From: an uncultured Bacteroidales bacterium
Lineage (GTDB): Bacteria; Bacteroidota; Bacteroidia; Bacteroidales; F082
Reading direction: 5' to 3'
Length of the DNA stretch: 64,000 nt
NCBI GenBank assembly: GCA_947166105.1
Contig: CAMVCZ010000010.1
Coordinates: 3,037 to 67,036 of the forward strand
In this document: positions 30,815 through 46,336 of the stretch, one piece after another
Position numbering within the stretch: position 1 is the first letter of the stretch
Layout: each line of letters begins with the position of its first letter
The notes under the pieces: model-generated
The model's database searches: none
The model's input: the letters and a program-made list of their open reading frames with translations, nothing else
Told to the model about the DNA's origin: nothing
Position numbers and translations under genes: made by a program

Positions 30815-31690
30815 TCAAGGATGCAAACTATTCCAATAGGGTCGAAGAATGTTTCGTATTAGCCCTCCAACTGTAACAAATGGCAGAGACTCGCCGAACT
30901 TTATCCTTCTTAGAAATCCTTCCCAATACATATTGCGGTTGTTATCGGTATAGAACTCCTCGGTAAACAGAGGATGATTCTCCACATACTTCGTGTCGCG
31001 GTTGGCAAAGGTCGCATTGATGGCATCGCCAAGGATTTCAGCATCGATATCCTGTCTCGTCATGATTTGGTACACGTCAAAGAAGTCTTTCATGCGGCTG
31101 TTACCTAACGACAGCGAAACCATCGCCTGAAACTTCTCGGCCACGACGGTTTCCAATGAGTAGGCCAAGATGGTTGTGCCTGGTACCGTATCGATTAAAG
31201 CTGGAAACGCCAACTGCTGAGGGTATGGGGTAATCACATCGCCAAATCCCACATCCATCGAAATGCGTTGCTGTGCCGTGTCCAGATGAGCCAAGAGCGA
31301 AACGCGCAAACCATGATATTCCTTGGTGATGGCAATCTCGCCTGTCTCTATCGTATTGCTGTCAAACATAACGCCATCCTCTTCACATTCGATCTGGCAA
31401 ATCTTTTGGAATGCACCCTTGATGTTCTCGGCATCGTTGCTGATGCGCCTTGCCATGAAGTCTATGTCCAAGGTGGGACGCGCCTGAAACCCGTCATGGG
31501 CATAGAGCAGCGCGCCACCTTTCAGGATAAAACTGTCCTTGTATTCGCTGACCGAAAGCCTGTACAGCAGACGTTCTTGGAAATAGCGTGAGAGCAGCAG
31601 CTGCAAGCTGTACTGCTCATCCCGTGAGATATTAAGCAAGCGTTCCTTGACGGACTTGCCATAATTGCTGAGGTTCTTTTTCTTGGCCAT
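30815..31690 (-). CDS. abiEii: AbiEii/AbiGii-family nucleotidyltransferase toxin
   Basis: FILKGGALLYAHDG..RPTLDIDFMARR matches the AbiEii NTase motif region. 291 aa, and directly downstream of an AbiEi-like gene. Confidence 0.75.
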   Translation of the reverse strand: MAKKKNLSNYGKSVKERLLNISRDEQYSLQLLLSRYFQERLLYRLSVSEYKDSFILKGGALLYAHDGFQARPTLDIDFMARRISNDAENIKGAFQKICQIECEEDGVMFDSNTIETGEIAITKEYHGLRVSLLAHLDTAQQRISMDVGFGDVITPYPQQLAFPALIDTVPGTTILAYSLETVVAEKFQAMVSLSLGNSRMKDFFDVYQIMTRQDIDAEILGDAINATFANRDTKYVENHPLFTEEFYTDNNRNMYWEGFLRRIKFGESLPFVTVGGLIRNILRPYWNSLHP

Positions 31691-31695
31691 AAAAG

Positions 31696-32295
31696 TTATA
31701 CCATGTATTTAACGAGTTCATCCATGAGTTTCCCGATGCGCATAACGATTGCGTATGAGTATAGTTTCGTGATGTCACAATCCTTTCGCGAGAGATAGTT
31801 TCGGAATATCTCAGAGCTAACATCAATTCCCACGCGGTTGCGGTACTTGATGGCATCGCAAACCGACTTCTCCAGGTCATAGATTTTCACCGTGAAGCCT
31901 TCTATGACAGCCTCAGTCACGCCAAGTTCAAAAACCTTACTGCTGAGGTAGAAGAGTTCTATCGGCGGGTAATCCGGCAGAACCACCTTGCGGCTGCGTT
32001 CGATAGCGATGCAATAGGAAAGGGGTATCTGCGTGCTCAGCCCATAATGTGACCAGGCTGAATACATACACAACACGCCGCTTGGCACGAGTCGTTCCAC
32101 GTCAACCATAGGTTTGGCCAGCCCCTCGCTAAGCGCATAGATTCCTTGGCGCACCCGTATGATAGTCCCTTTCTCGGCTTCATAAAGAAGCTGGTTGTAC
32201 AGGTTTTTCTCCTTGGCCTCCGCCGAGGAGATATACCCTCCATTCTGGTTTATATACTCTTTGATGTCCACTTTTTCGCAAATATATTGCTGCAA
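31696..32295 (-). CDS. abiEi: AbiEi-family type IV antitoxin/transcriptional regulator
   Basis: The N-terminal wHTH-like region ends in GTIIRVRQGIYAL, the family-typical R..rGvY. 199 aa. The ORF-track start is a TTG, so the true start is uncertain. Confidence 0.65.
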   Translation of the reverse strand: MQQYICEKVDIKEYINQNGGYISSAEAKEKNLYNQLLYEAEKGTIIRVRQGIYALSEGLAKPMVDVERLVPSGVLCMYSAWSHYGLSTQIPLSYCIAIERSRKVVLPDYPPIELFYLSSKVFELGVTEAVIEGFTVKIYDLEKSVCDAIKYRNRVGIDVSSEIFRNYLSRKDCDITKLYSYAIVMRIGKLMDELVKYMV

Positions 32296-32298
32296 AAA

Positions 32299-32324: not shown

Positions 32325-32416
32325 GATTTATAGGATTTTTTTTCCGAAAAGTTACTCACAATTGGAGCAAACGCCCATCGTCACAAATGCTTCTTCTGTT
32401 AATTTGCGCATAATCT

Positions 32417-32659
32417 TCAAATTAATCCATCATTATAATGTTTACCTGTTACATAATCTTCAAGAATCAGATTACCCCATTTAGTTGAACCATTCCTTTC
32501 ACCCAAGAAATCATACCATTTCTTTAAAACCATTTCCGTGTTTGAAATGTAGAAATATCCACCCCCAGCGTCCTTGTATTTCTCGTAAAGTGCTCTTACA
32601 TACTTTCGCATCGGCCCCAATTTGATCTTGATAAGGGTTTTCTTTTCCGATTTTTTCAC
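32417..32659 (-). CDS. 80-codon ORF, probably the displaced C-terminal part of the upstream palm-like gene
   Basis: Starts at a GTG inside GGTGAAAAAATCGG. Its sequence looks protein-like (..YVRALYEKYKDAGGGYFYISNTEMVLKKWYDFLGERNG..), while the overlapping tail of the 32511..33221 ORF does not. Confidence 0.4.
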   Translation of the reverse strand: MKKSEKKTLIKIKLGPMRKYVRALYEKYKDAGGGYFYISNTEMVLKKWYDFLGERNGSTKWGNLILEDYVTGKHYNDGLI

Positions 32660-33200
32660 CTATAAACTCAAACCAATTTACACACGGCATTTCTACCCAG
32701 CCTTCTTTTTTTATTGGTATTATCATTTCAGTGACCAAGTCGGGGATGGTTAGATTGACCGCAACCGGCAGAATAAGATCTGCTTTCTCATAAGCTATTT
32801 TATCCAGTACTATGCCATAAAAAAACAGTTTGTTTTGGAGTTCATATACCCTTGCTAAAGGTTCGCCTAACCAAATGTTTCTTTCCTTGTCAATTGTAAT
32901 AGTACCATAAGAAATTGCTCCATTGACAGCATATCCATGTTTAATGCAATAAGCCTCAATTTGAGCACAAAACAAAACCAATGATTCATATCCATCAACT
33001 GAATCATCAATTGTAGCTGCCATTATTGAATCAGAGTAATAATTGATGATAAGATTATTCTTTCTATACACTTTTGTAATATCATCAATCTCAGCATATA
33101 ACATATAGATTTTTTTGACGCCTTCTGTTTTTATCAGGTTTTTTATGCCCATAATATCCAAGAAGGCAATAAATCTATTTTTTGTAATGCTATCCAACAT
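32511..33200 (-). CDS. hypothetical protein with palm-domain cyclase/polymerase-like motifs (possibly frameshifted)
   Basis: FIAFLDIMGIKNLI .. (41 aa) .. YYSDSIMAAT .. NGAISYGTITI resembles the two acidic motifs of class III cyclase, GGDEF, Cas10 and mCpol palm domains. ATG 33200 was chosen because the track start is a TTG. Confidence 0.35.
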   Translation of the reverse strand: MLDSITKNRFIAFLDIMGIKNLIKTEGVKKIYMLYAEIDDITKVYRKNNLIINYYSDSIMAATIDDSVDGYESLVLFCAQIEAYCIKHGYAVNGAISYGTITIDKERNIWLGEPLARVYELQNKLFFYGIVLDKIAYEKADLILPVAVNLTIPDLVTEMIIPIKKEGWVEMPCVNWFEFIGEKIGKENPYQDQIGADAKVCKSTLREIQGRWGWIFLHFKHGNGFKEMV

Positions 33201-33207
33201 ATTACGT

Positions 33208-34227
33208 TTATTTTTCAACAAGTTTAAAACTCTTCCAATAATGAGATTTTTGATAATAACTCAATATGCTTTTTGACAAAACAATAATTGGATTTGTAAA
33301 CAAAAAAGTATTTTGCTCAATTAAAGGTGGTAATCCCAACATGGAAATCTTAGGAGAACCACAAGAATAAAAAGCCTCATCCTTTATCCTTTTCACACTG
33401 GCAGGAATTGTTATAGTTTCCAAATAATCACAATACTTCATCATACCCCTTCCAATCTCTTCAATTCCATCTGGAAACACAATTGATTTCAAGGATTTAC
33501 AGTAAGAAAAACACTCATTACCTATATGATTTATACTATTTGAAAGTACAATGCTTTTTAGACTTCGACAACTCTCAAATGCCTTGTCTCCAATGCTTTG
33601 AATGTTAGAGCCAATGTCCAACACTCTCAATGAACCACAATTATAAAAAGAACCGTCACCAATTTCTTCAATAGTCTGGGGAAGATAGATTTCTTTAATA
33701 TCACCGCAATTCTTAAAAGCATCATCACCTATCTTTGTAATGGTATAGGTATTCCCTTTAAATACAACTCTATCAGGAATATACAACTTGCCTTTTACAT
33801 AATTACAATTCAAAACGACAGCATTTGTTCCCTCGATATTCAATGCAACAATATTACCATCATCAAACACTATGTAGAAATCATAATCGGTCTTTCGTTC
33901 GGATCCGCATTCTACTTTATAATTGATTTTGTTCTTTTTGAATTGACTATTTAACCCACTCGGTGCTGTTGCATAATTATCTAAATCTAGACTTTTGATT
34001 TTTTCTATTGCAGCTTTACTTGAAGGATTTAATGCCAAATACTTGTACACTGTCGACTTTGCCGAATCGATTTTCCCCATACCCTCATATGCATCAGCCA
34101 ACCAAAGATAGGCCTCTTCCTTTTTCGGGTCGTTTTCAATGACTACCTGAAAAAACTCAATTGCTTGAAGAAATTGTCCTTTCTGGCACAACTCTATTCC
34201 TTTTTTTATTAATTGGTTATTATCCAT
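33208..34227 (-). CDS. TPR + BspA-type leucine-rich-repeat (LRR_5) protein, no signal peptide
   Basis: N-terminal TPRs (GQFLQAIEFFQVVIENDPKKEEAYLWLADAYEGMG). C-terminal repeats of the ..I.IP.SV..IG..AF..C..L.. type (IGDDAFKNCGDIKEIYLP, IGDGSFYNCGSLRVLDI, IGDKAFESCRSLKSIVL and others). Confidence 0.7.
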   Translation of the reverse strand: MDNNQLIKKGIELCQKGQFLQAIEFFQVVIENDPKKEEAYLWLADAYEGMGKIDSAKSTVYKYLALNPSSKAAIEKIKSLDLDNYATAPSGLNSQFKKNKINYKVECGSERKTDYDFYIVFDDGNIVALNIEGTNAVVLNCNYVKGKLYIPDRVVFKGNTYTITKIGDDAFKNCGDIKEIYLPQTIEEIGDGSFYNCGSLRVLDIGSNIQSIGDKAFESCRSLKSIVLSNSINHIGNECFSYCKSLKSIVFPDGIEEIGRGMMKYCDYLETITIPASVKRIKDEAFYSCGSPKISMLGLPPLIEQNTFLFTNPIIVLSKSILSYYQKSHYWKSFKLVEK

Positions 34228-34247
34228 AGCATTATCAAATTCTTTGA

Positions 34248-35495
34248 TTAAATTTCCTCCCAAACCAGCCTCACCCTAAACGGATGCTCTTCCATTTTCC
34301 AAACCAAAACCCGTTCCTTTTCTGCCATGCCCACCTCATCATAATAAGGCACAAATGCATCACCGTTGTACTCCTTCAGAAGAATGTCCATTTTTCTGAC
34401 CAATTGCTGTTTTTCAGCATAACCTTTGTCATTGTCGTTTTGGGCATATCGCAGTTCAATCTTGCTTTTATCGGTATGATCGCCTGCCATTTCCAAACGG
34501 TTGCGTCTATCCTTGGCTTCCATAATCTTTTTGTTGACCGCAAGGATGCTGGCTTTGGTCAGAGCAATCTGCCACAAAATGAACTTCGGCAAAGCATCGA
34601 CCAATTTCACTTCATCATACACACAGGCAATCGACATGTCATCCTGACTGCCACGTTTGCTCAGCACTGGCAGGGTCTCTTTGATGTCCGCAAAGGTAGC
34701 ATCATAACCATCAGTTACCAAGGACTTGGCCACTTTCACATAGAAATTCACCAAATTGGTTTCTTCGCCAAAAGAGTCGTCCATGCCATCGGATCCAAGA
34801 AAAATGGCAACAGGGAAGCCACCATCGCCTTGATAGGTGTAGCGGAACTCGTTCAAGGCATCGGAATCGCAAATCGAAGTGGTCTTGTTGAGGAAGCAGC
34901 GGTCGTCCCAAAGCACAGGTTCTTTCCATTGTGCCTCATGGTCGAATGAAATCATCTTTCCGTCGCCGAGATGGAAGGCAAACCAATATTTTGGCGTTTG
35001 CACATACGCCATCAACGTGCAACCATAAATCTTTTCCAACTTATAGCCTGACAAAAACTCCTTTTTGTACTGATCTTCAACCTGAGCATTCTCCTTTTCG
35101 GTCAGAGGATTCTCAGCAGCATGTCGCTCAATCCGTTGCTGCCATTGGCTGATGATGGAGGCGAACAACTGCCTGAAAGCCATATCGACAGGCTTTTCCT
35201 TGCGGAAATCCTGACGGTCTATTTCCGTCTGAATGGCCGCTTGTTGGGTGAATGGCTGGCCAACAAGCAGAGTTTCGTCAATATGATTGACAAACTCCCT
35301 TACATTGTTGGCGATAATCTCGGTGGCAAAACGTGCTCCCACATCGCTGCGGAAATAGTGCTTTCCACCGTGGCCATCACACACAACGGCAATGGCCAGA
35401 CCATTCTCGTCAACATGACTGTAAGAATAGTCTTGGCACATTTTATCAGTTGCCTTGTGGCTTTCGCCTTGGCAATGAAAATCGAAACACCTCAT
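34248..35495 (-). CDS. PP2C-family Ser/Thr protein phosphatase (TerY-P triad component)
   Basis: CQDYSY..AIAVVCDGHGGKHYFRSDVGA and a later GSDGMDD. ATG 35495 was chosen because the track start is a TTG. Confidence 0.8.
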   Translation of the reverse strand: MRCFDFHCQGESHKATDKMCQDYSYSHVDENGLAIAVVCDGHGGKHYFRSDVGARFATEIIANNVREFVNHIDETLLVGQPFTQQAAIQTEIDRQDFRKEKPVDMAFRQLFASIISQWQQRIERHAAENPLTEKENAQVEDQYKKEFLSGYKLEKIYGCTLMAYVQTPKYWFAFHLGDGKMISFDHEAQWKEPVLWDDRCFLNKTTSICDSDALNEFRYTYQGDGGFPVAIFLGSDGMDDSFGEETNLVNFYVKVAKSLVTDGYDATFADIKETLPVLSKRGSQDDMSIACVYDEVKLVDALPKFILWQIALTKASILAVNKKIMEAKDRRNRLEMAGDHTDKSKIELRYAQNDNDKGYAEKQQLVRKMDILLKEYNGDAFVPYYDEVGMAEKERVLVWKMEEHPFRVRLVWEEI

Positions 35496-35506
35496 GGGAT
35501 AGGTTT

Positions 35507-36250
35507 TTAATCCCAATCGTCAGAATATGAGCTGCCGTCAACTTTCGTTGCGACTTCGGCACCGTCGATGTTATCCACGGCATTCTGTACTTCGCTAATC
35601 ACCTGGTCTTGCTTTGTGGTGTCGCCAGCAGTACTGCTCTTGCTACCTATCTGCGAAGATGTAACGGCCACCACGCGGATGATCTGCTTCAACGCGTCAA
35701 TGTTGTGAACCGTAAACACGGCCTCGTTGGTACCCGTAAACTTGGCTAACACTTCCTTGTCAGCATCGTCGCCGATGGCAATGGCCACCTTGATGGCCGA
35801 TTTGAACCAGTTGTTGGCTTTCAGTTTCGCTAGACCAGCCTCATAATTGTCGGTAGGGGCACCGTCGGACAATAGAATGATTGCAGGGGCAAACGAGCCA
35901 CTTGCAGACTGCATGAAGCCCTTGCTGCGCGACAGTTTGTTTTCCAATTCTTCGCAAGCTGCACCCAATGAGGTCAGGCCGTTGGCTTGAACATCTTGCC
36001 AAACAAATTCATTGGCCAATTTCGGCTCGTTGTAGAGCCAGTTGCAGCCCGTCGAGAACTCCAAAGCTGCCACCTTGATCTCGGCATCCGGATTGGTGAC
36101 GGAAATCTCGTCCAACATGGGCAGCACATTAACCACCGCATCATTGACAGCTCCGATTTTGCTTCCAGCCATACTACCGGAAGTGTCAATCATGAAGAAA
36201 AGCGTCATAGTTCTACGCGGTACACTTACAGTTTCGTCTAATAGTGACAT
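35507..36250 (-). CDS. vWA-domain protein, TerY-like (TerY-P triad component)
   Basis: MIDAS motif DTSGSM in LFFMIDTSGSMAGSKI, then ..GLTSLGAA.. and ..ILLSDGAPTD... 247 aa. Confidence 0.8.
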   Translation of the reverse strand: MSLLDETVSVPRRTMTLFFMIDTSGSMAGSKIGAVNDAVVNVLPMLDEISVTNPDAEIKVAALEFSTGCNWLYNEPKLANEFVWQDVQANGLTSLGAACEELENKLSRSKGFMQSASGSFAPAIILLSDGAPTDNYEAGLAKLKANNWFKSAIKVAIAIGDDADKEVLAKFTGTNEAVFTVHNIDALKQIIRVVAVTSSQIGSKSSTAGDTTKQDQVISEVQNAVDNIDGAEVATKVDGSSYSDDWD

Positions 36251-36262
36251 AATGCTTTGATT

Positions 36263-37534
36263 TTATTGATTATTGATTATGATCTCTCCTTTATTGGCGG
36301 CATTAAAGCCAACCTTGATGCCGTGTTTGACAGGCATAAACTCATTCGGTTCAACCGACTTGACTTTCCCGCTTGGTGTTTCAGCCGTCCATTTTTCTTT
36401 CGTCAGGTTTTGCAAAAGCAGCATATTCCTGTCCTGTGGATTGACGGCGACACGTGCATCTGGTGTGTTGTCGTAGTCGATAAAGAGTCGGGTTCCATTG
36501 GTCAGCAACAGAGTGCGTAATCCTAATTTCAACCTCCTTCTGACATCCACGTCACGCCCGCAATTCATACATTGCGGCTTTGCCTCATCTATGAATGTTT
36601 CTTCGCCACAATGCGGACAAATTACCAACTTGTCACGCAATGAGGCAATCAGCTTCCCCCAATTCTGTTCTATCATTCGGCTTTGTGGATTCTTCAACAT
36701 TTCCGGGCTAAACTCGCGAATAAAAGTATCGCGCAATTCGGCAGGCATGACAGGCCAACGACGTATTACATTCTGATGAATGCCCCTAACAGGCAGATTG
36801 GTCTTGTTATTAGGGTCATAAATGAAAACCGCTTCGCTACCGTAAAACTTCTTTTCGTATGCCTCAGTCATGCAAGGACAGGCCACCACCTTGGCACCCT
36901 CAAACGGATGGTTGGCATAGAACAGCATAAACAAGATAACCGACAACGAAAAACGGTCGCTATACTTGTCGGGAATGCCGCCAGCCACTATCTCTGGCGC
37001 CATATAACGTGCCTTGCCCATAATGCCCGATTTTTCGCCTTGTGGCATCACGTTGTCGTTGTCGCAAATCAGAACGTCGCCCGTGTCGGGATCGATGAAG
37101 AAATTACCATCGTTCAAGTCCTGGTAGCTATAGCCAAAACGGTGCAGCATCATAAAGCCGTTGCAGATCTTCATTGCAGCGGCCATCATTGCCTGAAATG
37201 ATTTGAAACTTTTTTTCGCCAAAAGGAAGTTGCCAAATTCAAAATAATTCTGAGGGCGCAGTGCCATCACATAGCCAAAACTTCCTTTTTGTCGCTCTGA
37301 AATGCGTTCTGGCCAAAGAAATGCCGAACTTGGAGCACCATTCATAACATTATTTGCCAAATTATTGTAAAAGCTCACATCAGGCATGTTATGGTACCAT
37401 TTCAATGCCTTCGGCTGGCCATTCAAATCGACCAAATACACAATTCCCTGGCCACCTCGCCCAAGTTCCTTTTTTATAGTGACAAAGCCACCGTTGAGGA
37501 GGCTAATTTTCTCTCCTGTTCTCAGTTCGCTCAT
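36263..37534 (-). CDS. Ser/Thr protein kinase with C-terminal zinc ribbon and FHA-like tail (TerY-P triad component)
   Basis: Gly loop GRGGQGIVY, Lys in PKALKWY, catalytic loop YQDLNDGNFF, CDNDN (the DFG equivalent) and RYMAPEI. CPHCGEE..CMNCG zinc ribbon. Start at ATG 37534, downstream of its own promoter box. Confidence 0.8.
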   Translation of the reverse strand: MSELRTGEKISLLNGGFVTIKKELGRGGQGIVYLVDLNGQPKALKWYHNMPDVSFYNNLANNVMNGAPSSAFLWPERISERQKGSFGYVMALRPQNYFEFGNFLLAKKSFKSFQAMMAAAMKICNGFMMLHRFGYSYQDLNDGNFFIDPDTGDVLICDNDNVMPQGEKSGIMGKARYMAPEIVAGGIPDKYSDRFSLSVILFMLFYANHPFEGAKVVACPCMTEAYEKKFYGSEAVFIYDPNNKTNLPVRGIHQNVIRRWPVMPAELRDTFIREFSPEMLKNPQSRMIEQNWGKLIASLRDKLVICPHCGEETFIDEAKPQCMNCGRDVDVRRRLKLGLRTLLLTNGTRLFIDYDNTPDARVAVNPQDRNMLLLQNLTKEKWTAETPSGKVKSVEPNEFMPVKHGIKVGFNAANKGEIIINNQ

Positions 37535-37557
37535 TTTTCCATTTTTGTTAGTGACCG

Positions 37558-37565
37558 CAAAAATA
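37558..37565 (-). promoter_or_regulatory. -7 promoter box (TATTTTTG) heading the kinase-vWA-PP2C module
   Basis: The reverse complement of caaaaata, 23 nt upstream of ATG 37534, inside the only sizeable (55-nt) gap of the island. Confidence 0.45.
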
Positions 37566-37589: not shown

Positions 37590-38363
37590 TCAAAACCAAA
37601 TCTCGTCATTAACGACACTCTCCACTTCATTTTCCAGCTTATCAGGTAAAGTGTAGAAAAAATCGATGCCAGTCAATGACTCAATCTCATCAATGGTCTT
37701 TGTATATACCGACAAAGGTTTGTGTCCAGCTACGTTCTCAAAATAAAAACCAACACCTTCATATTTGCCGTTTTTGCAAACCAGAAGCACCTTGTAGAAT
37801 GCATCTGGAACCGCAACCAGATTACGACCTATCACACCGTTTTTAGCTTCTCCTACAACGGGCCCGGCTGCAATATAAACATTTCCATATCGACGGGCAT
37901 AATCGCGGCATTTTTCCTCCAAGGACCGCCAATCGCCTCCATTCAAATTGTGGTTTTGAGGACAAATGTTTGTGAAATAGCAACTCTCCAACATGGCTTG
38001 TTCGTCCCACTTCATATCACCAGCTGGAGCAATGTGACCTTTGTCCCATCCCGTGTTTCGATAGTCATCATTGTCAGCTTGCTTCCCTCTCGCATCGGGG
38101 TCAGGAAAGTAACGGCTGTTTCGTTTGCAGGTGCCGTTCACTTCAATATCGGTAAGCTCGTATGCCACACAATTCGGCAGCCTCGTATCCTTGTTGTACG
38201 AAACCGTGTAGCCCATGTGTACGATAACCTGGTTTTCCCTGCTATCCATTACTCTTGGCGTTTCAATAGGTACAGTGTTAACCGCCTCGGTTTTCTTGAC
38301 GTTGGCACAAGAGACCTGCAAAAGCGTTAACAGCGTGGCAATTATGTAAATTAAGTCACTCAT
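37590..38363 (-). CDS. DNA/RNA non-specific endonuclease (Endonuclease_NS/NucA-like), lipoprotein
   Basis: Signal peptide with lipobox (MSDLIYIIATLLTLLQVSC). Active-site region GWDKGHIAPAGD (the DRGH equivalent) and NICPQNHNLNGGDW. ATG 38363 overlaps the channel stop (ATGA). Confidence 0.8.
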   Translation of the reverse strand: MSDLIYIIATLLTLLQVSCANVKKTEAVNTVPIETPRVMDSRENQVIVHMGYTVSYNKDTRLPNCVAYELTDIEVNGTCKRNSRYFPDPDARGKQADNDDYRNTGWDKGHIAPAGDMKWDEQAMLESCYFTNICPQNHNLNGGDWRSLEEKCRDYARRYGNVYIAAGPVVGEAKNGVIGRNLVAVPDAFYKVLLVCKNGKYEGVGFYFENVAGHKPLSVYTKTIDEIESLTGIDFFYTLPDKLENEVESVVNDEIWF

Positions 38364-39130
38364 TCGTTTGTTTTCTCCTCTTTTTTGTTTTTTGATTCTT
38401 TCAAAGCACGAAGTTCGTCCAAATAGCTTGCTGTGATAACACCTGATGGTAAGGCAATGATAGCCACGCCAAAAAGTGACGATAGCATACTGATAAACCT
38501 TCCAAGGTCTGTTACAGGACACAGATCACCATAGCCAACGGTTGTTAATGTGACCGTAGCCCAATACAATGCATCAAAGAACGAAGAAAAAGTCTCAGCT
38601 CCTGTATCAGGATTGACTCGTGGTTCCGCATTAAACATAATTAATGCCGTCAGGAATATGTAGAATACCGCTATCACTAACACGGTAAGAAGCACATTCT
38701 TTTCTTTCTTGATGACATTCAAAAACAAAGAAACTTTGTCAGTATACCTCAACAATTTGAGTAAACGAAACACACGCAGCACCCTCGACAACCTGAATAT
38801 CTTGAACGCGGGGTTCAATACATTCAATCCGGGCAAAATAGACATCATGTCTATTATTGCCATTGGTGTGAGAGGATATAAAGCAAATGACCATCCTTTT
38901 TTGTTTAGTTTCAGGTCGGCAGTAATCCACCGAAACACATAATCCACGATGAAGATAACAGTGGTTATCTTGTCCACTGCCTTGAACCAGGGCAATTCAA
39001 CAGTAAACATCAAAGGAATGATGCTTAATACAATAACAACCAACATGAAAACATCATACACCTTACTGGTGATGCTGTTATGGCTGTCCTTTTCGATGAT
39101 GTCAAATATTTTAGCTCGCGTATGCGCCAT
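38360..39130 (-). CDS. 6-TM voltage-gated-type potassium channel
   Basis: S4-like FRLSRVLRVFRLLKLLRY with Arg at every third position, and the selectivity filter TLTTVGYGD. ATG 39130 was chosen because the track start is a TTG. Confidence 0.85.
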   Translation of the reverse strand: MAHTRAKIFDIIEKDSHNSITSKVYDVFMLVVIVLSIIPLMFTVELPWFKAVDKITTVIFIVDYVFRWITADLKLNKKGWSFALYPLTPMAIIDMMSILPGLNVLNPAFKIFRLSRVLRVFRLLKLLRYTDKVSLFLNVIKKEKNVLLTVLVIAVFYIFLTALIMFNAEPRVNPDTGAETFSSFFDALYWATVTLTTVGYGDLCPVTDLGRFISMLSSLFGVAIIALPSGVITASYLDELRALKESKNKKEEKTNE

Positions 39131-39143
39131 AATCAATGCGGTT

Positions 39144-40319
39144 TTAATTTGTTTTCTTTAGTTCCGAAAGTATCTTTTCATATTTGATTGGCAGCACAAC
39201 GGATTGCTTGCTTTGTGAATCTGCCAATTCTATAGCTTCAGTTATTTCCTGATTGTCAGCAATGTTATCTCTAATCATAATAGCATCATCCATCGTCAAG
39301 ACACACGTAGTTGGCTTCTGCATTGGTTTAGTTGGCCTGATGAAATTGGAATGCGTAACGCCTCCATCTTCTAGATTCTTGATACTGGTAGTAAACGTGG
39401 TTGAGCGTATTGATTCCAATCGCATCGCGCCACGAACCATTTTTTCATTCATTACATGAGTCCAATTGTAAATGTCAGCATCTGGCGCAATCCTTTTGAT
39501 ATTCAGTGCCGCGAACCTGTCTCTTTCAAATTCCACCCATAGCTGCCCTTCAGTATGACCTGTTTTCCACATGGCCACCTGTACATAGCAGACGTTCACT
39601 GAAACGGTAAACATCAGACCTGCCAAATAATACGCCAAACTTAAAATGCTGTCAGTCGTTTCTTGTGTAATCTCTCTTTGTAGCTTGTCTTTGTAGGTTG
39701 AACCCAAACGTGCCGTATAAACTTCTTTTATCGCTGGAACACCCATGTCAAAGGGAAGTTCAACATCCAAGGCTACGCAACGATTCCGTTTTGTGTATTC
39801 CACATTCAGTTTCAGGTCGTATGGCAGCCTTAAATTGGAGAATATGGCACTAACCCCTGCCATCACATAGTCATCTTCGCCTGAGATGTGTTTCTCTAGT
39901 TTTGACTTTTCTTCAAGGAACGCTTCAAGATAAGTATGATTCTGTTTGGCCTCATTATAATCCTCCAGCTTTTCAAAGAAATCAGCCAACCTTAACCATT
40001 GCTTTTGACGATCATTAAAAGCTTTATCAAGATGAGTAGAAACATAATCGGCTACTTTTTTATCTCTTTCATTCGCTTCCGACTCAAACAGGAACTTCGC
40101 TTCTTCTTCCAGCAACGCTTTCACTTCCTTTTTCTGCGGCTTGGCAAAGCCAAATCTCTTCCTGGAATACTTCTTTTGTCCCAATTGCGTCAGTAGGTTT
40201 TCAAAGTACATGGAAGGTCTTATTTCTGGTATGTCTTTATGCAACCCAGTAAGCTTCTTGGTTAGCGCATTGGGCTCCAATCCCAAGTTAGACCTCAAAA
40301 TGGTGTGTGTGCTTTTCAT
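39144..40319 (-). CDS. hypothetical protein (391 aa), no family recognised
   Basis: Long ORF with normal composition, wedged between hxsC (16-nt gap) and the channel gene (13-nt gap). Confidence 0.6.
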   Translation of the reverse strand: MKSTHTILRSNLGLEPNALTKKLTGLHKDIPEIRPSMYFENLLTQLGQKKYSRKRFGFAKPQKKEVKALLEEEAKFLFESEANERDKKVADYVSTHLDKAFNDRQKQWLRLADFFEKLEDYNEAKQNHTYLEAFLEEKSKLEKHISGEDDYVMAGVSAIFSNLRLPYDLKLNVEYTKRNRCVALDVELPFDMGVPAIKEVYTARLGSTYKDKLQREITQETTDSILSLAYYLAGLMFTVSVNVCYVQVAMWKTGHTEGQLWVEFERDRFAALNIKRIAPDADIYNWTHVMNEKMVRGAMRLESIRSTTFTTSIKNLEDGGVTHSNFIRPTKPMQKPTTCVLTMDDAIMIRDNIADNQEITEAIELADSQSKQSVVLPIKYEKILSELKKTN

Positions 40320-40335
40320 CGTTTTCTCCTTCTAA

Positions 40336-41205
40336 TTAACTTTGCTTATTAAGTCCTATATACTCTTTAGCGGAAGTGCTGAACAAGCCACAACACTTTT
40401 CCTTTACCGAACAATCATCGCAAATCTTCGAGTATTTTATCTTCCAATCAGAAATGCTTCTTTTTGCAAACACCCAGCAATCTTTGGGCAACAGACATAA
40501 TGGGATATTGTAGACTGCAACTGGTACACCCCAACTATCCAAAATCATCGCTGCTTCTCTCAAGTAAGAGGCATATTCGTAGGGCTCAGCCCAAATCAAA
40601 GACTGGTTCTTGACCGAATATCCTATTCTTTCCATTCCCATGAATGCCACCCATGAGACAAAGGGCAGATTCTTGAAAATGAATTCTGCCATTTGCGGCA
40701 AGCGTTTGTAGTTCATGGCATTGATAACAACCCGCAATTCTATCTCTACACCCTCAGCAGCCAAATTATACAATCCATAAACGGTTTCCTCAAAAGCATG
40801 TTTGCTTCCCGCTATTGCATCATGGTCTTTCAAATAATCGGAATGTAAGGGTATGCCTACGAAAAACTCTTCTCCAGCGGCTTGTGCCACACGATGGGCA
40901 TAATCAGCATCCTTAAATTTTCTACCATTGCTAAGCAATTGAATGGCGGTGTTTGGCAGGTGCTTCCTGATTTCAACAATAAGATCAACTAGTCTTTCTC
41001 CCAAAAGAGTCGGCTCACCACCTGTTATTCCTAAAACCTTCAATCCCTCTGGAGCACTCTTCAACAATTGAAGATTCTTCTGATATAATGCTTCTATGTC
41101 ATCAACAGTCGATGGCGGCTGACAACACATTAGGCAATTATTATTGCATTGCTCGGTGACGAACAAAGCATTGTCGTTGGAATCTATGTCAAAACCATTT
41201 TTCAT
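40336..41205 (-). CDS. hxsC: His-Xaa-Ser system radical SAM maturase HxsC
   Basis: CxxxCxxC motif CNNNCLMC near the N-terminus, a C-terminal Cys cluster CDDCSVKEKCCG, about 290 aa, and a position directly after hxsB with an ATGA overlap. Confidence 0.8.
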   Translation of the reverse strand: MKNGFDIDSNDNALFVTEQCNNNCLMCCQPPSTVDDIEALYQKNLQLLKSAPEGLKVLGITGGEPTLLGERLVDLIVEIRKHLPNTAIQLLSNGRKFKDADYAHRVAQAAGEEFFVGIPLHSDYLKDHDAIAGSKHAFEETVYGLYNLAAEGVEIELRVVINAMNYKRLPQMAEFIFKNLPFVSWVAFMGMERIGYSVKNQSLIWAEPYEYASYLREAAMILDSWGVPVAVYNIPLCLLPKDCWVFAKRSISDWKIKYSKICDDCSVKEKCCGLFSTSAKEYIGLNKQS

Positions 41206-42605
41206 AGAAGCCAAGTTTTGAATATGGGAACAACTTCATCTTTACGCTCAACAATCAAGGAAATCAAGTATTCTATGATAGCCTTGTTTTTCTTACACAA
41301 CAACGATGATGGCCTATGGCCATACATATCGCCTTGTGTTGAATAGTTTCTAACGGGGTCTGCACCACAATACGCTTTCAACGCACAATCAGAACAACCC
41401 GCCAGCGATTCATTTGCCCAAATCTCAGCTATATCACGAACCTTATTTCCGTACACAACATCTTCATAACGGTCAAACACGCTACCAAGCTGGAATGTGT
41501 AGTCTCCCTTTTCCGCCAACATCCTTGATTCATCTGAAGCATACACGTAGCCGTCATAGTTGTAAACGAGAACAGAATTAACGATGCCTGCTGGTGATTG
41601 TAGGTCGACAAAACCAGTGCTAAATGGTGTGAGCATCTTGCGCAAAATAATGATGGCAAACTCTTCGGCAAAATGAACGCCTTGTTTGTTGAGCTCCAGA
41701 ATATGCTCAAATGCCTTTTTATAGAAATCAATAAACTTCCGCGTGTAATCTTCCCAATCAGGATTGTCTGAGGCTAAACCGTATGGATTTAAGGCTCTTA
41801 AAAACAAGCTCTTGAACCCAAGTTTAGCATATTCATCGACAATTTCTACGGGATGGTTTAATCCCCGAACTGATGTCGTCATCAATGCAGAAACTTGTTC
41901 GTTGCCTAAAGCTTTACGAGCCTTTTCAATCCCAGCAACGACTTTTTCATAGCTATCCGTTTTTCCTCTATTAGCGTTGTGTAAAAAAGCAGGTCCATCC
42001 AAAGAGGTGGAAATCATCACACGATATTGCTTGCAGATGTCCAGCATCTCGTCCGTCAGATTCACACAGTTGGTGCAAAGCACATACCTCACTTCTCGGC
42101 CATCGACCAGCCTTTTCTCTTCAGCTTTTTCTATGCCGAAACGGATAAGCTCAGGATGTAAGCTCGGTTCGCCTCCTTGAAACTCCATCGTAAGGACTGG
42201 TGCAGGTGAACGGAACATGAGTTCAACAGAACGTTCCATTACTTCATACGACATAGTACAATGCTCACTTTGTTCTTTGCGGCTCGAAGCCTGGCAATAG
42301 ACACAATTCTGATTGCATTGCAAGGTCACGACAAAGATGTGCAATGCCGTGAAGTAATCCATAAACCGTTTCTTTTCTCTCAATCGAGCAGCATAAACAT
42401 CCAGTAGGGGAGGTACCAATTCTTCGCTGATAAAGAAGTTGGCCACCAAAGATTTATACAAATCATCTTTTCCCATTTGTCGGTCAATAATCCGTTGGAC
42501 TGTGCCCTCTGGAACAACCATCATATCACCCACTTCGTTGACAAGTATTTCTTTGTCAGCAATTCGGGTGAAATTAAATGGTAAAAGATGATACTGCATT
42601 TTCAT
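41202..42605 (-). CDS. hxsB: His-Xaa-Ser system radical SAM/SPASM maturase HxsB
   Basis: CNQNCVYC radical SAM motif and a C-terminal SPASM-like CSDCALKAYCG..LC. 467 aa, with ATGA overlaps on both sides. Confidence 0.8.
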   Translation of the reverse strand: MKMQYHLLPFNFTRIADKEILVNEVGDMMVVPEGTVQRIIDRQMGKDDLYKSLVANFFISEELVPPLLDVYAARLREKKRFMDYFTALHIFVVTLQCNQNCVYCQASSRKEQSEHCTMSYEVMERSVELMFRSPAPVLTMEFQGGEPSLHPELIRFGIEKAEEKRLVDGREVRYVLCTNCVNLTDEMLDICKQYRVMISTSLDGPAFLHNANRGKTDSYEKVVAGIEKARKALGNEQVSALMTTSVRGLNHPVEIVDEYAKLGFKSLFLRALNPYGLASDNPDWEDYTRKFIDFYKKAFEHILELNKQGVHFAEEFAIIILRKMLTPFSTGFVDLQSPAGIVNSVLVYNYDGYVYASDESRMLAEKGDYTFQLGSVFDRYEDVVYGNKVRDIAEIWANESLAGCSDCALKAYCGADPVRNYSTQGDMYGHRPSSLLCKKNKAIIEYLISLIVERKDEVVPIFKTWLL

Positions 42606-42898
42606 TCGGCTTCCTCGATATTAAAATCTTCGTAGTCGGCAAATGCTTTTGCATACAAGATTGTTCGGATGTCTTTTGTTTCTTCTGCTACTATTTGCCT
42701 CAATTTAAAGTCGTTCAACTTTTGAAGAAACAGTCTTTCGGCATCCTCATCCGAAATGAATCCATTTGTCGGAATCAGTTCTATGCTTTCAGTATTGCCA
42801 TCTAGTTGTCTATTACATTGAAAGACCTCCGATAAACTATATACGCATTTACTGATGCATTCATCAGAATAAATGTTCCTATCAATCAGAATCTTCAT
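42602..42898 (-). CDS. hxsD: His-Xaa-Ser system protein HxsD
   Basis: 98 aa. Contains KLNDFKLRQ, matching the LLNDYxLRE signature after which the TIGRFAMs HxsD model is named. Confidence 0.8.
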   Translation of the reverse strand: MKILIDRNIYSDECISKCVYSLSEVFQCNRQLDGNTESIELIPTNGFISDEDAERLFLQKLNDFKLRQIVAEETKDIRTILYAKAFADYEDFNIEEAE

Positions 42899-43770
42899 TT
42901 TGCAGATGCCTTTAGTCTTTCAATCGTAGTCCTGTCTGCTATTCCAGTGACTTCAAGTCCAGCAAAAGCTTGGAAAGTCTTTACTGCCTTCCTCACTTCT
43001 TCATTGTACTTGTTCCCATCCAGTTTCTCTGGCTCTGGTGGGAAGCCAGCCTTGTTTAAGAGTTCAATTAAAGCAAGCACATCTGCACCGCTATCATTTT
43101 GTTTCAAGTCCCTTACACCCAATACAAGTGTTGATTTTGAGCTGTTCCAAGTACCTAAAAGCGATACTTCTGTTTCTCCAACTATACCAGTTTCTTTGAT
43201 TTTAGCGTCTTTTTGGAACTGCTTTACAGCTCTTTCAACATCTTGATTAAACAAGTAATAATCCGATTGCGTCGCTGAAAAGTCGTTCCGTAAATAGTAA
43301 TTAGACTGAAGCTTTGAAACCAATTCATTGACATCCTTTCCATACAGCCCTCTCTTTAATGTACGGTCGCCAAGTGAATAGGTCTTGTACGTCTTAGCAG
43401 CAGGTTTAGGCGTAGAATACAGTCCGCTTGCAGTTCCCGAGCTACTTGAATAATGCGAACTTGAATAGTGGGAACTTGAATAATGCGAACTATGCCCGCT
43501 TCTGCTCGAACGGTGTGAGCTGTGCGAACGGTGCGAGCTGTGTGAACGATAACTATCTACGCCAATCATCGTTCCATCCGGCTTTAGTTTTATAACATGT
43601 TTGAAAACCTTTTGCTTCATGATGTCTAGTTCTTCAGCATTGCTGTTGCCAAGATCGTCAAGTGATGGCAGTGTGGGTACTTCAGCCTTCAATTCAGAAT
43701 GAAACAGCGACAAAACGGCTGAGGCCAAAAGTGATTTGATGATTCTTTGAGAAGTCTTATTCATTTTCAT
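42895..43770 (-). CDS. hxsA: His-Xaa-Ser repeat protein HxsA with two C-terminal peptidoglycan-binding (PG_binding_1-like) repeats
   Basis: Signal peptide MKMNKTSQRIIKSLLASAVLSLFHSELKA. Repeat tract SHSSHRSHSSHRSSRSGHSSHYSSSHYSSSHYSSS. PG-binding-like VKQFQKDAKIKETGIVGETE and VKTFQAFAGLEVTGIADRTT. Start at ATG 43770 (ATGA overlap with the upstream stop). Confidence 0.8.
   Translation of the reverse strand: MKMNKTSQRIIKSLLASAVLSLFHSELKAEVPTLPSLDDLGNSNAEELDIMKQKVFKHVIKLKPDGTMIGVDSYRSHSSHRSHSSHRSSRSGHSSHYSSSHYSSSHYSSSSGTASGLYSTPKPAAKTYKTYSLGDRTLKRGLYGKDVNELVSKLQSNYYLRNDFSATQSDYYLFNQDVERAVKQFQKDAKIKETGIVGETEVSLLGTWNSSKSTLVLGVRDLKQNDSGADVLALIELLNKAGFPPEPEKLDGNKYNEEVRKAVKTFQAFAGLEVTGIADRTTIERLKASAK
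43441..43551 (-). repeat. coding tandem repeats specifying the H-x-S tract
   Basis: Plus-strand reiterations cttgaataatgcgaa/cttgaatagtgggaa/cttgaataatgcgaa and gaacggtgtgagctgtgc/gaacggtgcgagctgtgt. Confidence 0.8.
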
Positions 43771-45209
43771 TTTGTTGTACGTTTCTTTATAAAGTTCAGC
43801 CAATAATCATTGGGGTTGTATTTCAAAAGAGCCTCCAATTCTTTTTTACTATCTTCGCTTAGCTTTCCCTTGTTTTTAGATATGTCTTTCAATAATGAAT
43901 CAAACCTAATTTCAAAGGATTCATTTGCCTTCAATTGGTATCTTTTTACCACACTTTGAATCCTTTCAGTATACCTGCCATCATTTCTAACTTGCTTTGG
44001 AATAACTCCGATAAATTCCTCTATTGGCAAATAGTCATTATTTGCTGCTATGATGGCATTACATTGCCTTTCAAACTCATCAATGGCTTGTTCACTTAAT
44101 TCTTTCAGCTTCCCATCCACCTTAGATTGATACATCTGTTGCTTATAGCTAATCCCATAGAATTCTATTCCATTCTCGTATGCTAAATAGGCTTTGTCAA
44201 ACTGCTTCAATGACATCAAACTGTCACCTTCTCCAATCTTATTCTCGATTGCTAATATGCTGGGTTTGTTTGCCGCATATCGAGCCTTGGATATGGCAAT
44301 TATTGTGAGGACAGCAACTATTATCGCAATCATTGAGAACAATGCAATACGGACAGATTTTCTTCGCTTATTAGCTGCGTCAATTGCAGCTTGCATGTCC
44401 TTTTTGCTGTCGAATGTAACTGGCAACCTTAGTATAGTCTGTGCTTTACGCAACTTCATAGCCATTTCATCTAATTTGCTAACTGTGGCATCTTCATAGA
44501 AAGGCTTCGCTCCAGTAAGCAAACCTTTTGATACAACAATACTATCTGTCAATAGCTTGTTGTAATCCCCAGTCAAACTGTCAATTGTAGCTTGTGCGAC
44601 AGATTTCATTTTGCTATATGGTGCTCTATACTTAGCCAGGCAATCTAATTTCTTGTTCTTACACCAATCAACATCCTTTTCGTTTAAGTGCTGCATGAGC
44701 AATGCTATCTTTCCCTCCCAGAAATACAATTCATTACATGCATCTACACCATAGTATGCATCATCAAGCCCTAAGCAATCTTTTACTTTAGTGATAAGTC
44801 TCTCTAAGCTTTTTGTGTAACTCTTTTTTGCATTTTCAAGTTCCTGCTCAGGATCTGTAATCACAGCTTCAACTGCATCAGCATCTGAAATAAGCCCAAC
44901 GCCTTGAAGCAATCCATAGACCACATCCGAAACTTCTTTTTTGTCAAAATTGCCTCTTGAGACAAAGTCTAACACATAATCCTCGTTTTGCTGTTTCCAG
45001 TCTGCTTTGTGTTCATTCAGCCATCCAATTATCTTTGCGCCATAGCCATCGGCAATCAAACTCTTTATAATGAGTTTTTCTTTTCCATCCGCTATTCGAA
45101 ATGCTCCATAATCGGCCAAGACGTTTACAAAACTTGACGACCTAAGTGTATCAACACCGAGCGCATCTACTGCTTGCTTGACCGCTTCTTTGATTTGAAC
45201 ATTTTTCAT
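43767..45209 (-). CDS. hypothetical single-pass membrane protein (480 aa)
   Basis: One central TM helix (IALFSMIAIIVAVLTIIAISKA) between two helical soluble halves. Its stop overlaps the hxsA start. Confidence 0.6.
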   Translation of the reverse strand: MKNVQIKEAVKQAVDALGVDTLRSSSFVNVLADYGAFRIADGKEKLIIKSLIADGYGAKIIGWLNEHKADWKQQNEDYVLDFVSRGNFDKKEVSDVVYGLLQGVGLISDADAVEAVITDPEQELENAKKSYTKSLERLITKVKDCLGLDDAYYGVDACNELYFWEGKIALLMQHLNEKDVDWCKNKKLDCLAKYRAPYSKMKSVAQATIDSLTGDYNKLLTDSIVVSKGLLTGAKPFYEDATVSKLDEMAMKLRKAQTILRLPVTFDSKKDMQAAIDAANKRRKSVRIALFSMIAIIVAVLTIIAISKARYAANKPSILAIENKIGEGDSLMSLKQFDKAYLAYENGIEFYGISYKQQMYQSKVDGKLKELSEQAIDEFERQCNAIIAANNDYLPIEEFIGVIPKQVRNDGRYTERIQSVVKRYQLKANESFEIRFDSLLKDISKNKGKLSEDSKKELEALLKYNPNDYWLNFIKKRTTK

Positions 45210-45241
45210 AGTGAACTATCTAATTCCATTATATTTCTACA

Positions 45242-46336
45242 TTATACACTTACCATCGAAAGCAGGTTCACCACAAACCAGCTATCAAAACCTTGAAACA
45301 CCATTCGCTTGGAATTACCATCCTTCAGCACTTCAATGCCGTCGGAATACGGAGTGATACCAACCAATTTCTTGTATGGTATCTTCACACCTTTTTCCGT
45401 TGAATAGAATATGAAGTCCTGATTGGTCACATACAGATCGCCAACGGCTACTTTTTCCATATACTTATGCTCAACGGGATGTCCTTTTGACCTACCAGTG
45501 TGGTAATAAACCCCTTTCATTACCTTAAAGCTGAACCCTCCACTATTCCTGACAAATTCTTTCTCTATCTTTTCCTGATAGAAAGTTACATTGTTGTATG
45601 TCCACAACAATGATTCATTTTTCCCTAAAAGCACAGGAAGTTGAACAAATGTGGAGGGCATTATGCCTTTGGCAAAATTCTTCAGAACCGTCATTTGACC
45701 CAGCTTTGCCAAATCCGTATCCTTATATTTTACTGGCAGATTATCAATAGGAAGCGAAAATGCCGAAGCAAAAGACCGTATCAATCCTTCTTCCTTATCG
45801 GTAAGGATGCCGTCTTTCATAAAATTCTCGGCAGCTTTGTTCAGCACATACAAATAGGCTTCGTTTTGTTCCTCTTGATTCAAAGGAAGTACAGCCATTA
45901 CCTCACGAATATTGCGCTTTACCTCGTTTTCAGTAGCGCCATCTGTGAAACACATCACCAAATGCCCTTTCACTACTTTTTGAGCCAATTTGCTTAATGT
46001 GTTATCCTTGTTCAAAACATTGTATGAAACATTCAACAGTTTCATCAAGCGACTAACATTTTGTTCAACGGCGTGAGTAAATGGCCTATGTATGGCATCG
46101 ACAAACTTGTCCAAGGCTTTTATGGCGCAATCCGTCCTCTCATCATCTGTTATATAGCCCTTATTCTGAATCCCATTAAAACGTTCAACAAAGTCTTTGT
46201 TCGTTAGAGGCTTACACAAATATGAAAACAAGAAACCCTCCATTTCTTGGATTCCGTTTTCGTGTTGCTCTTCACATTCTTTGTGTTTCGTCGAGAACAA
46301 TCCAACATCTTTTCCGCAATACTTACATTTTCCCAT
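45242..46336 (-). CDS. hypothetical protein, N-terminal CxxC zinc-ribbon-like motif and C-terminal bacterial PH/GRAM-like region
   Basis: MGKCKYCGK..HKEC at the N-terminus. The C-terminal part (..LLGKNESLLWTYNNVTFYQE..GDLYVTNQDFIFYS..) resembles bPH/YokE-like domains. This is the first gene after the island promoter box. ATG 46336 was chosen because the track start is a TTG. Confidence 0.55.
   Translation of the reverse strand: MGKCKYCGKDVGLFSTKHKECEEQHENGIQEMEGFLFSYLCKPLTNKDFVERFNGIQNKGYITDDERTDCAIKALDKFVDAIHRPFTHAVEQNVSRLMKLLNVSYNVLNKDNTLSKLAQKVVKGHLVMCFTDGATENEVKRNIREVMAVLPLNQEEQNEAYLYVLNKAAENFMKDGILTDKEEGLIRSFASAFSLPIDNLPVKYKDTDLAKLGQMTVLKNFAKGIMPSTFVQLPVLLGKNESLLWTYNNVTFYQEKIEKEFVRNSGGFSFKVMKGVYYHTGRSKGHPVEHKYMEKVAVGDLYVTNQDFIFYSTEKGVKIPYKKLVGITPYSDGIEVLKDGNSKRMVFQGFDSWFVVNLLSMVSV

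Follow-up and report, generated by a model that had tools for sequence, protein, structure and literature searches.

The triad in which a kinase joins a TerY-like vWA protein and a PP2C phosphatase is said to have been defined by Anantharaman, Iyer and Aravind in 2012, and Gao et al. reportedly showed in 2020 that it is anti-phage, as TerY-P, in a version whose kinase carries an OB fold at its C-terminus. To our knowledge, how TerY-P senses infection and what it controls are not known in the field. The locus described here lies in a stretch of 64,000 nucleotides from an uncultured Bacteroidales bacterium (assembly GCA_947166105.1, contig CAMVCZ010000010.1, positions 3,037 to 67,036), the whole of which is called the window below. 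Within it, genes for a kinase, a vWA protein and a PP2C phosphatase are followed by a gene joining TPR helices to BspA-type LRR_5 repeats and by a fifth gene, gene 5, whose product is predicted to have a cyclase-type fold.

One source (PMC11090510) defines TerY-P by three parts, a TerY-like vWA protein and a PP2C together with a Ser/Thr kinase that bears a zinc ribbon, and published TerY triads are embedded in variable conflict systems. The vWA-centred ternary conflict systems include cyclic nucleoside monophosphate (cNMP) cyclase domains in effector or signal-generating roles (Kaur, Burroughs, Iyer and Aravind 2020, PMC7159879), and the same paper links a kinase that has a zinc ribbon plus a domain rich in beta-strands to PP2C and a stand-alone vWA protein. 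HXS, a third relevant system, blocks phage DNA entry (Li et al., Nat Commun 2026, PMC13128918). It is found to 99.7% in Pseudomonadota and shows the gene order D-B-C-A in 99.6% of cases, and the paper makes no mention of kinases or TerY.

Because the triad fits the published description and its variable embedding, the region is read here, with a probability of about 55%, as a hub of the TerY-P type that has a cassette slot prone to recombination, in which the LRR and cyclase-fold genes would be an optional accessory pair that is decaying in this genome. A sequence-only reading of the same DNA had taken the five genes for an extended, five-gene variant of the triad. Its observations were partly confirmed and its interpretation was partly supported.

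The triad and its linkage to the gene pair

Every gene between 30.8 kb and 48 kb lies on the minus strand. In the direction of transcription, the order is kinase, vWA, PP2C, TPR+LRR_5 and gene 5, with a promoter-like box ahead of the kinase. The box and the first four genes are:

37558..37565, minus strand: Bacteroidetes-type -7 promoter box TATTTTTG, 24 nt 5' of the kinase ATG
36263..37534, minus strand: Ser/Thr kinase, 423 aa; Pkinase (PF00069) E 2.3e-13
35507..36250, minus strand: TerY-like vWA protein, 247 aa; VWA (PF00092) E 3.1e-12; MIDAS motif DTSGS
34248..35516, minus strand: PP2C phosphatase, 415 aa from the ATG at 35495; PP2C_2 (PF13672) E 6.9e-29, above the cut-off; helical C-terminal tail
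33208..34227, minus strand: TPR and BspA-type LRR_5 protein, predicted cytoplasmic, 339 aa, GC content 33%; LRR_5 (PF13306) E 9.7e-40, TPR_19 E 3.9e-7

The motifs on which the sequence-only reading had based its assignment of the triad are all readable, and the three Pfam matches bear them out. The kinase shows a Gly loop (LGRGGQG), the ALK lysine, a catalytic loop (YQDLNDGN) and YMAPE, while the PP2C retains the metal-binding motifs CDGHGG, GSDGMDD and DDMS. At the C-terminus of the kinase, a zinc ribbon (CPHCG-x14-CMNCG, of the CxxC...CxxC type), which gives sub-threshold Pfam matches only (E 0.001-0.5), is followed by a beta-rich tail of about 90 aa. This tail had been called FHA-like, a label that was not confirmed: no FHA match appears in Pfam even at E<=0.5, and Pfam and PDB sequence searches of the tail return no other domain. 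What the published description names is present, namely a MIDAS-bearing vWA protein with an adjoining PP2C and an adjoining Ser/Thr kinase that ends in a zinc ribbon. The three genes fit a TerY-P-type module, as had been proposed, and the triad may protect against phage.

The vWA protein shares about 30% identity over 80% of its length with enterobacterial plasmid TerY, and one copy is annotated terY. Its tblastn search matched 2263 plasmid records, mostly enterobacterial ter plasmids. Clusters at 90% identity hold 198 members for the kinase, 166 for the vWA protein, 2 for the PP2C and 5 for the LRR protein, and exact-sequence searches with the window's vWA protein and its truncated gene 5 product matched no contig.

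The genes are tightly spaced. With ATG starts, which the public gene calls use, the four gaps measure 12, about 11, 20 and 7 nt, and the TTG starts of the TPR+LRR and gene 5 frames would make both overlap the preceding gene; the last two gaps and the TTG overlap had been noted beforehand and are correct. The kinase's own TAnnTTTG box had likewise been noted. TATTTTTG falls within the 55-nt gap between the stop codon of an upstream nuclease gene and the kinase ATG, and a box recurs 5' of the kinase in seven of nine related loci, three of which have unrelated upstream DNA. Because the window holds 55 TAnnTTTG copies against 38 expected, the motif alone is weak evidence.

Two sets of loci define how the last two genes relate to the triad. 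A scan by PP2C alignment, at one genome per species, gave 28 related loci, nearly all in Bacteroidales metagenome-assembled genomes from rumen or gut; the contexts of gene 5 were read on metagenome contigs, and all loci were mapped by tblastn. Seen from gene 5, the linkage is strong: a TPR+LRR_5 gene without a signal peptide stands directly 5' of it in all 11 distinct architectures (the window, L001, L002, L006, L024, L026, L037/L125, L038, L041, L126 and L127; the L001 copy is apparently degenerate). The triad is visible in nine of them, and the remaining two contigs end too early. In L037/L125, the five genes recur in another genomic setting with gene 5 intact, as one block that is colinear over 5.3 kb at 88% identity.

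Seen from the triad, gene 5 is present in only two of the 28 species-level loci (L024 and L026) and absent from 26. Additionally, in L026, L041 and L126 the pair follows an HXS module or a K+ channel gene and not PP2C. The expectation that the extra genes would be conserved beside such triads therefore held from the gene 5 side, with an LRR gene in 11/11, and failed from the triad side, with gene 5 in 2/28. In the same way, the proposed five-gene variant keeps its support from the conserved adjacency and the L037/L125 block and loses it through the loci that lack gene 5. A phage-borne element was considered and rejected: no gene 5 relative was found among viral contigs, where the PP2C clade turned up only once.

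The LRR protein itself follows the triad more widely. TPR-LRR genes occur in 11 of 14 loci whose kinase is at least 74% identical to that of the window, at one to four copies per island, and in none of the more distant triads. The paralogues share 26-41% identity where kinase and vWA protein share 74-83%. The window protein begins with a TPR helix and every paralogue starts with a TPR module, whose N-terminal motif (A/M)xE(Y/F)FQAAIE, EYFQAAIE in the window, is common to the LRR paralogues and the islands' FtsK/TPR ATPase. Inspection and a hydropathy heuristic revealed neither a signal peptide nor a Cys lipobox in nine TPR-LRR paralogues; the maximal 12-residue hydropathy within the first 40 aa reaches 1.74 in the window protein and does not exceed 0.82 in any of the paralogues. 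The claim that the protein has no signal peptide stands, with no hydrophobic N-terminus and no lipobox seen, and inspection of the N-terminus predicts it to be cytoplasmic.

Fold and frame of gene 5

The interval 32417..33200 had been taken as one gene. Its 784 nt contain two reading frames and not one open reading frame, separated by a +1 frameshift in a GGGG run:

32511..33200, minus strand: gene 5 frame A, from the ATG at 33200; predicted class III cyclase-fold domain, premature stop, 229 aa
32417..32614, minus strand (open frame from 32659): gene 5 frame B, the C-terminal helical domain YxYISNTE...WGNLILEDY, out of frame
32615..32618, minus strand: GGGG run with the +1 insertion, from DNA alignment against L037 and L038
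32355..32411, minus strand: remnant of a TerY_C gene (PF15616-type), 19 codons MRKLTEEAFVTMGVCSNCE followed by a stop, directly 3' of gene 5

Relative to the two intact relatives, L037 and L038, the window differs at 32615-32618 by a single extra G. Full-length homologues of 256-266 aa span both frames, and the frameshift removes the C-terminal helical domain with about 25 positions invariant among close homologues; within it, the Y218/N221/T222 motif is near-invariant in the wider family. Directly downstream, the first 17 codons of the TerY_C remnant (MRKLTEEAFVTMGVCS.C) match the beginning of a 122-aa TerY_C protein encoded after gene 5 in L038. The remnant marks the cassette's recombination junction on the downstream side. 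The gene 3' of gene 5 in L125 was also considered as a TerY_C gene and rejected; from its N-terminal sequence alone it is AlbA_2-type-like. Provided that the extra G is not a mistake of the assembly, the 3' end of the cluster has decayed in the window, and we infer that gene 5 has probably lost its function in this genome.

Sequence searches place gene 5 in an unannotated family. Among 5.8e9 proteins, gene 5 retrieved just 17 clusters (90% identity level), all of them free of Pfam domains, and searches of Pfam, NCBIfam, PADLOC and PDB sequences gave no significant match. The single match in PHROGs is to a family of unknown function, and PDB sequence matches of the family profiles, SRN2 and Tako8, were rejected as chance. 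A profile search of 1.84 billion representative proteins extended the family to 1453 relatives at E<=1e-3, mostly of 230-270 aa. Members are stand-alone proteins of about 240 aa from many environments, with heterogeneous contexts (metagenome loci L044-L123).

Structural modelling is more informative. A first model, built from 14 close homologues, was poor (pLDDT, the score of the predicted local distance difference test, 51) and was replaced by an AlphaFold2 model from a 52-sequence alignment, with a pLDDT of 91.4 and a predicted template modelling score (pTM) of 0.89. In Foldseek, the top 50 PDB matches of this model are without exception catalytic domains of adenylyl or guanylyl cyclases of class III (E from 1e-7 to 6e-6, probability 1.00, target-normalised TM 0.6-0.71), and matches in the viral library BFVD are cyclase/GGDEF proteins. 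Guanylate_cyc (PF00211) is the only Pfam family that matched more than one relative (5/52, sub-threshold, best E 0.0046); at the gathering score, it matched neither the window protein nor its homologue P0001. The only residues invariant across the 52 relatives are D15, G18, S56, D57 and G112. D15, at the end of beta1, and D57, in the beta2-beta3 hairpin, occupy the two metal-binding positions of the cyclase palm. The palm-like character ascribed to gene 5 from its sequence is thereby borne out in the model: gene 5 is predicted to have a class III cyclase-type palm fold.

An exchangeable slot within a larger island

Comparison with L015, whose island is near-identical to that of the window, exposes the slot in which the pair resides:

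32343..34241, no strand assigned: swappable cassette; homology to L015 ends at 34241 and resumes at 32343

From the gene of a 366-aa protein to the vWA gene, the two islands share 91-98% protein identity (92.7% at the nucleotide level), and the AbiE genes on the other side share 91-94%. The junction at 34241 lies directly after the PP2C stop codon. In the same slot, L015 carries a 5.2-kb cassette of genes for 416-aa, 240-aa, 240-aa, TerY_C, LRR and LRR proteins. Sliding identity shows that the window's kinase and vWA genes are closest to L015/L009, mostly at 90-100%, and that the 3' end of the PP2C gene (34686-34240) is closest to L037, at 87-95% against 63-79% for L015. This places a recombination breakpoint within the PP2C gene near 34700, with an L015/L009-like 5' part and an L037-like 3' end. 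Further on, the LRR gene and the initial 260 nt of gene 5 reach 98-100% nucleotide identity to L037 between flanks of 87-93%. GC content follows the same mosaic, at 33-34% in the pair, 46-50% in the triad, 36-42% in the HXS block and 48% in AbiE. No flanking repeats or tRNA genes were found at the cassette borders. The window holds a tRNA-Arg(ACG) and a tRNA-Glu(CTC) gene at 63146-63324, far from the island borders.

Judged by conservation across the related loci, the unit is larger than five genes and adds the 366-aa partner, a secreted nuclease and often HXS, partners that are better conserved and that lie outside the five genes originally singled out. The remaining features of the island are:

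45242..46342, minus strand: uncharacterised protein, 366 aa; N-terminal CxxC and weak GRAM/PH-like hints at the C-terminus
40336..43803, minus strand: HXS module with HxsA (42895-43803), HxsD (42602-42898), HxsB (41202-42605) and HxsC (40336-41214)
38360..39136, minus strand: Ion_trans K+ channel gene, 258 aa, recurring in related loci
37590..38363, minus strand: Endonuclease_NS (PF01223 E 3.7e-50), lipoprotein-type signal sequence MSDLIYIIATLLTLLQVSC, directly 5' of the kinase and its promoter box
30815..32295, minus strand: AbiEi/AbiEii toxin-antitoxin pair (PADLOC AbiEi 1e-54, AbiEii 8.8e-94), a separate downstream unit
46441..47985, minus strand: AAA-ATPase_like and PDDEXK_9 gene, island border
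48132..52169, plus strand: SNF2-family helicase, 1345 aa, island border

Counterparts of the genes from the 366-aa protein to Endonuclease_NS (46342..37590: 366-aa, 480-aa, HxsA, HxsD, HxsB, HxsC, 391-aa, K+ channel, Endonuclease_NS) occur in related loci in other orders; they precede the triad in the window and follow it in most other loci. Of the partners of the triad clade, the most constant is the 366-aa protein: it occurs at 12 of the 28 loci from the genome scan and at nine further related loci. Its family comprises 296 clusters, all annotated 'hypothetical', with a length fixed at 364-366 aa. In distant triads, the 366-aa gene comes directly or a few genes after PP2C, for example on a complete Prevotella plasmid and on one viral contig. 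The plasmid, pE2-28 of Prevotella sp. E2-28 (L124; NZ_CP091789.1, 23989-52735), encodes a helix-turn-helix protein, TerY_C, kinase, vWA and PP2C; after these come hypothetical genes that include the 366-aa homologue, together with genes for an FGE-family protein, a 3'-5' exonuclease and FtsK.

The HXS set, with its radical-SAM pair HxsB and HxsC, is complete, and this pair passes the NCBIfam equivalog cut-offs. HxsB matches NCBIfam TIGR03978 at E 2.1e-171 (570.8 bits, cut-off 370) and HxsC matches TIGR03977 at E 6.9e-102 (340.2 bits, cut-off 267.9). HxsA combines PG_binding_1 (E 1.5e-22) with H-x-S repeats (SHRSHSSHRS...SHYSSSHY), and HxsD is identified by homology to genes annotated with PF27806. 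The order is A-D-B-C in the window and in related loci, and HXS adjoins the triad in the window and about ten related loci. Extra conserved genes flank the module, one of 480 aa upstream, which shares the region 40336-45209 with the four Hxs genes, and one of 391/304 aa downstream (391 aa in the window, 39144-40319). The recurrent Endonuclease_NS gene abuts the stop codon of the channel gene with zero gap, and in L026, L041 and L126 the channel gene is the immediate upstream neighbour of the LRR-gene 5 pair.

In L037/L125, only the last 20 Endonuclease_NS codons are left beside the intact five-gene block. The same SNF2 flank is present there, and a TPR/LRR gene and an SLFN/AlbA_2 ATPase replace the block from the 366-aa gene to Endonuclease_NS; the SNF2-flanked site looks like a defence hot spot. 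The AbiE pair has its own TAnnTTTG boxes at 32279-32300, and such pairs flank the islands in L006, L009, L010, L013-L015, L024 and L126. Other defence genes around these islands include SLFN/AlbA_2 and AbiGi. Just outside the island, two tandem paralogous genes of about 765 aa (26066-28357 and 28390-30699) encode membrane proteins that by eye resemble cation/proton antiporters with C-terminal regulatory domains.

Competing readings and known systems

Under the preferred reading, the triad would act as a phosphorylation switch and, lying nearest the promoter, as the conserved hub of a mosaic defence island of gut and rumen Bacteroidales, and the slot downstream of PP2C would accept interchangeable cassettes. 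The fast-evolving TPR-LRR protein could serve as a ligand-recognition or adaptor subunit that docks, probably, through its conserved N-terminal TPR. The cyclase-fold protein would be the dedicated enzyme of the LRR protein, either a generator of a nucleotide-derived signal or a nucleotidyl transferase. The pair would thus be an accessory of the switch and not a core part of it. Still working in this genome are probably the triad and possibly the LRR protein, together with the 366-aa protein, the secreted nuclease and HXS.

Several observations weigh against this account. We infer the sensor and signal roles and the coupling to the switch from a locus whose gene content, fold, synteny, mosaicism and frameshift are what the analysis displays. 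Part of the synteny reflects common ancestry, because all loci with gene 5 belong to one bacterial order. As a motif the kinase box is weak, and neither terminator nor promoter signals decisively join or split the genes. At E<=0.01, PADLOC gave no defence-model match for the vWA protein, PP2C, LRR protein or gene 5, and only PD-T4-6, mad6 and generic kinase models for the kinase, so that no TerY-P call was made; for the triad this null is limited, since the presence of TerY-P models in the library is unconfirmed. Cyclase chemistry is uncertain for gene 5, because the transition-state Asn/Arg pair (VNxAxR, helix alpha4) is apparently not conserved: the corresponding helix reads EPL(A/S)xVY(E/D)LQ, with no conserved N or R. 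This mapping was made manually, by secondary-structure register, because hhalign of the family profile against the cyclase Cya2 gave no alignment. Among the metagenome neighbours of distant gene 5 relatives, there is no recurrent partner and neither LRR genes nor kinases, which lends no support to a general link with either. Finally, since the contig seems to be metagenome-derived, the frameshift could have arisen in the assembly.

The main competing explanation sees in the TPR-LRR gene and the cyclase-fold gene a defence module that works by itself, a sensor with a nucleotide-signal enzyme under Pycsar- or CBASS-like logic, which happens to be lodged in the variable part of defence islands and is functionally independent of the triad. 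The pair's low GC content, its recombination as a unit (98-100% identity to L037 within flanks of 87-93%) and its position after HXS or the K+ channel in three architectures speak for independence, as does the wider gene 5 family, which occurs without triads and sometimes beside restriction-modification methylase, Shedu SduA_C, AAA_15/21 or HEPN genes. Against this, none of the 11 architectures lies outside an island with triad, HXS, 366-aa or Endonuclease_NS genes, two contigs being too short to tell. No promoter box was found in the 20-nt and 7-nt gaps before the LRR gene and gene 5, the 3' tail of PP2C was co-inherited with the cassette, and TPR-LRR genes accompany the triad clade even where gene 5 is lacking (11 of the 14 loci with a kinase at least 74% identical). 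Nor is there a recognisable cNMP-binding effector nearby or a PADLOC match to Pycsar. An autonomous module is possible and nonetheless unlikely.

The opposite view, an obligate five-component TerY-P variant whose five-gene operon is the unit of selection, can point to the intact colinear block of L037/L125 in a second context, to the tight intergenic spacing and to the promoter box before the kinase. It is improbable given the 26 related loci that lack gene 5, the other cassette in the same island of L015, the pair detached from PP2C in three architectures and the frameshift of gene 5 beside an intact triad; gene 5 also forms 17 clusters against 296 for the 366-aa partner. These points, with the truncated TerY_C, set aside the idea of a fixed five-gene system. 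That the LRR_5 protein is a usual BspA-like protein of surface or adhesion function among unrelated cargo, held in place only by synteny inherited within one lineage, would agree with the usual surface location of LRR_5 proteins in Bacteroidota, with a sub-threshold NCBIfam match to the adhesin HupY and with the restriction of all loci to Bacteroidales. It seems very improbable in view of nine TPR-headed paralogues without signal peptide or lipobox, of the same TPR module at the head of the cytoplasmic FtsK-type ATPase of these islands, of an LRR-gene 5 adjacency kept through at least 11 rearranged architectures, and of the surrounding defence genes (AbiE, HXS, SLFN/AlbA_2, AbiGi).

A bolder extension, which we regard as doubtful, takes the triad as a phospho-switch hub over interchangeable clients with N-terminal TPRs (LRR_5 protein, FtsK-type ATPase, cyclase-fold enzyme) and, in many Bacteroidales, over the periplasmic HXS barrier to DNA entry, and the gene 5 family as new nucleotide-signal synthases in which a C-terminal Y-x-x-N-T replaces the Asn/Arg pair. 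If it were true, hub and clients would make up a regulated, multi-layered immune island. On the preferred hub-and-slot reading as well, the Bacteroidales clade offers a natural experiment, with one hub and many swapped cassettes (LRR, cyclase-fold, TerY_C, FtsK, HXS). Three testable ideas follow from it: that the triad is a regulatory switch over variable sensors and effectors, that a large unannotated cyclase-fold family acts in defence, and that HXS and a phosphorylation switch are linked in the Bacteroidales of gut and rumen, a group in which experimental work has covered few defence systems. The complete plasmid pE2-28 provides a cultured-strain entry point to this triad clade.

Compared with class III cyclases, including the Pycsar protein PycC (a cyclic UMP synthase, PDB 7r65, which was among the matches of the first, weaker model), gene 5 is predicted to share the beta-alpha-alpha-beta-beta-alpha-beta palm fold and has two invariant Asp at the metal-binding positions. 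It differs in apparently lacking the Asn/Arg pair and in carrying an extra conserved C-terminal helical domain of about 80 aa with a Y-x-x-N-T motif. Pycsar itself is not matched by PADLOC, and the neighbours of gene 5 contain no cNMP-binding domain, the K+ channel having Ion_trans only. With BspA-type surface proteins, the window protein shares LRR_5 repeats, and no export signal was found in it. The vWA-centred ternary systems resemble the locus in that a vWA protein, repeat-domain sensors and cyclase domains come together in them. At their centre stand MoxR/VMAP or GTPase components, none of which occurs at this locus, and the cyclase-fold protein of the window is a separate small gene paired with the LRR_5 protein.

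HXS is a neighbour of the five genes and not among them: HxsA, HxsB, HxsC and HxsD all lie 3-9 kb upstream in the same co-directional island. Unlike the described systems, this one is found in Bacteroidales, in the order A-D-B-C, with extra genes (480 aa, 391/304 aa) and beside a triad. From TerY-P, the window departs in the order kinase-vWA-PP2C, possibly in the beta-rich kinase tail, which follows the zinc ribbon where Gao's version has an OB fold, and in clade partners (TPR+LRR_5, the cyclase-fold protein, the 366-aa protein and HXS) that are undescribed with TerY-P. It agrees with TerY-P in its adjoining and co-directional TerY-like MIDAS vWA protein, PP2C and zinc-ribbon kinase, and, as published for TerY triads, those of the window clade sit among variable conflict modules, including FtsK, helicase and nucleases.

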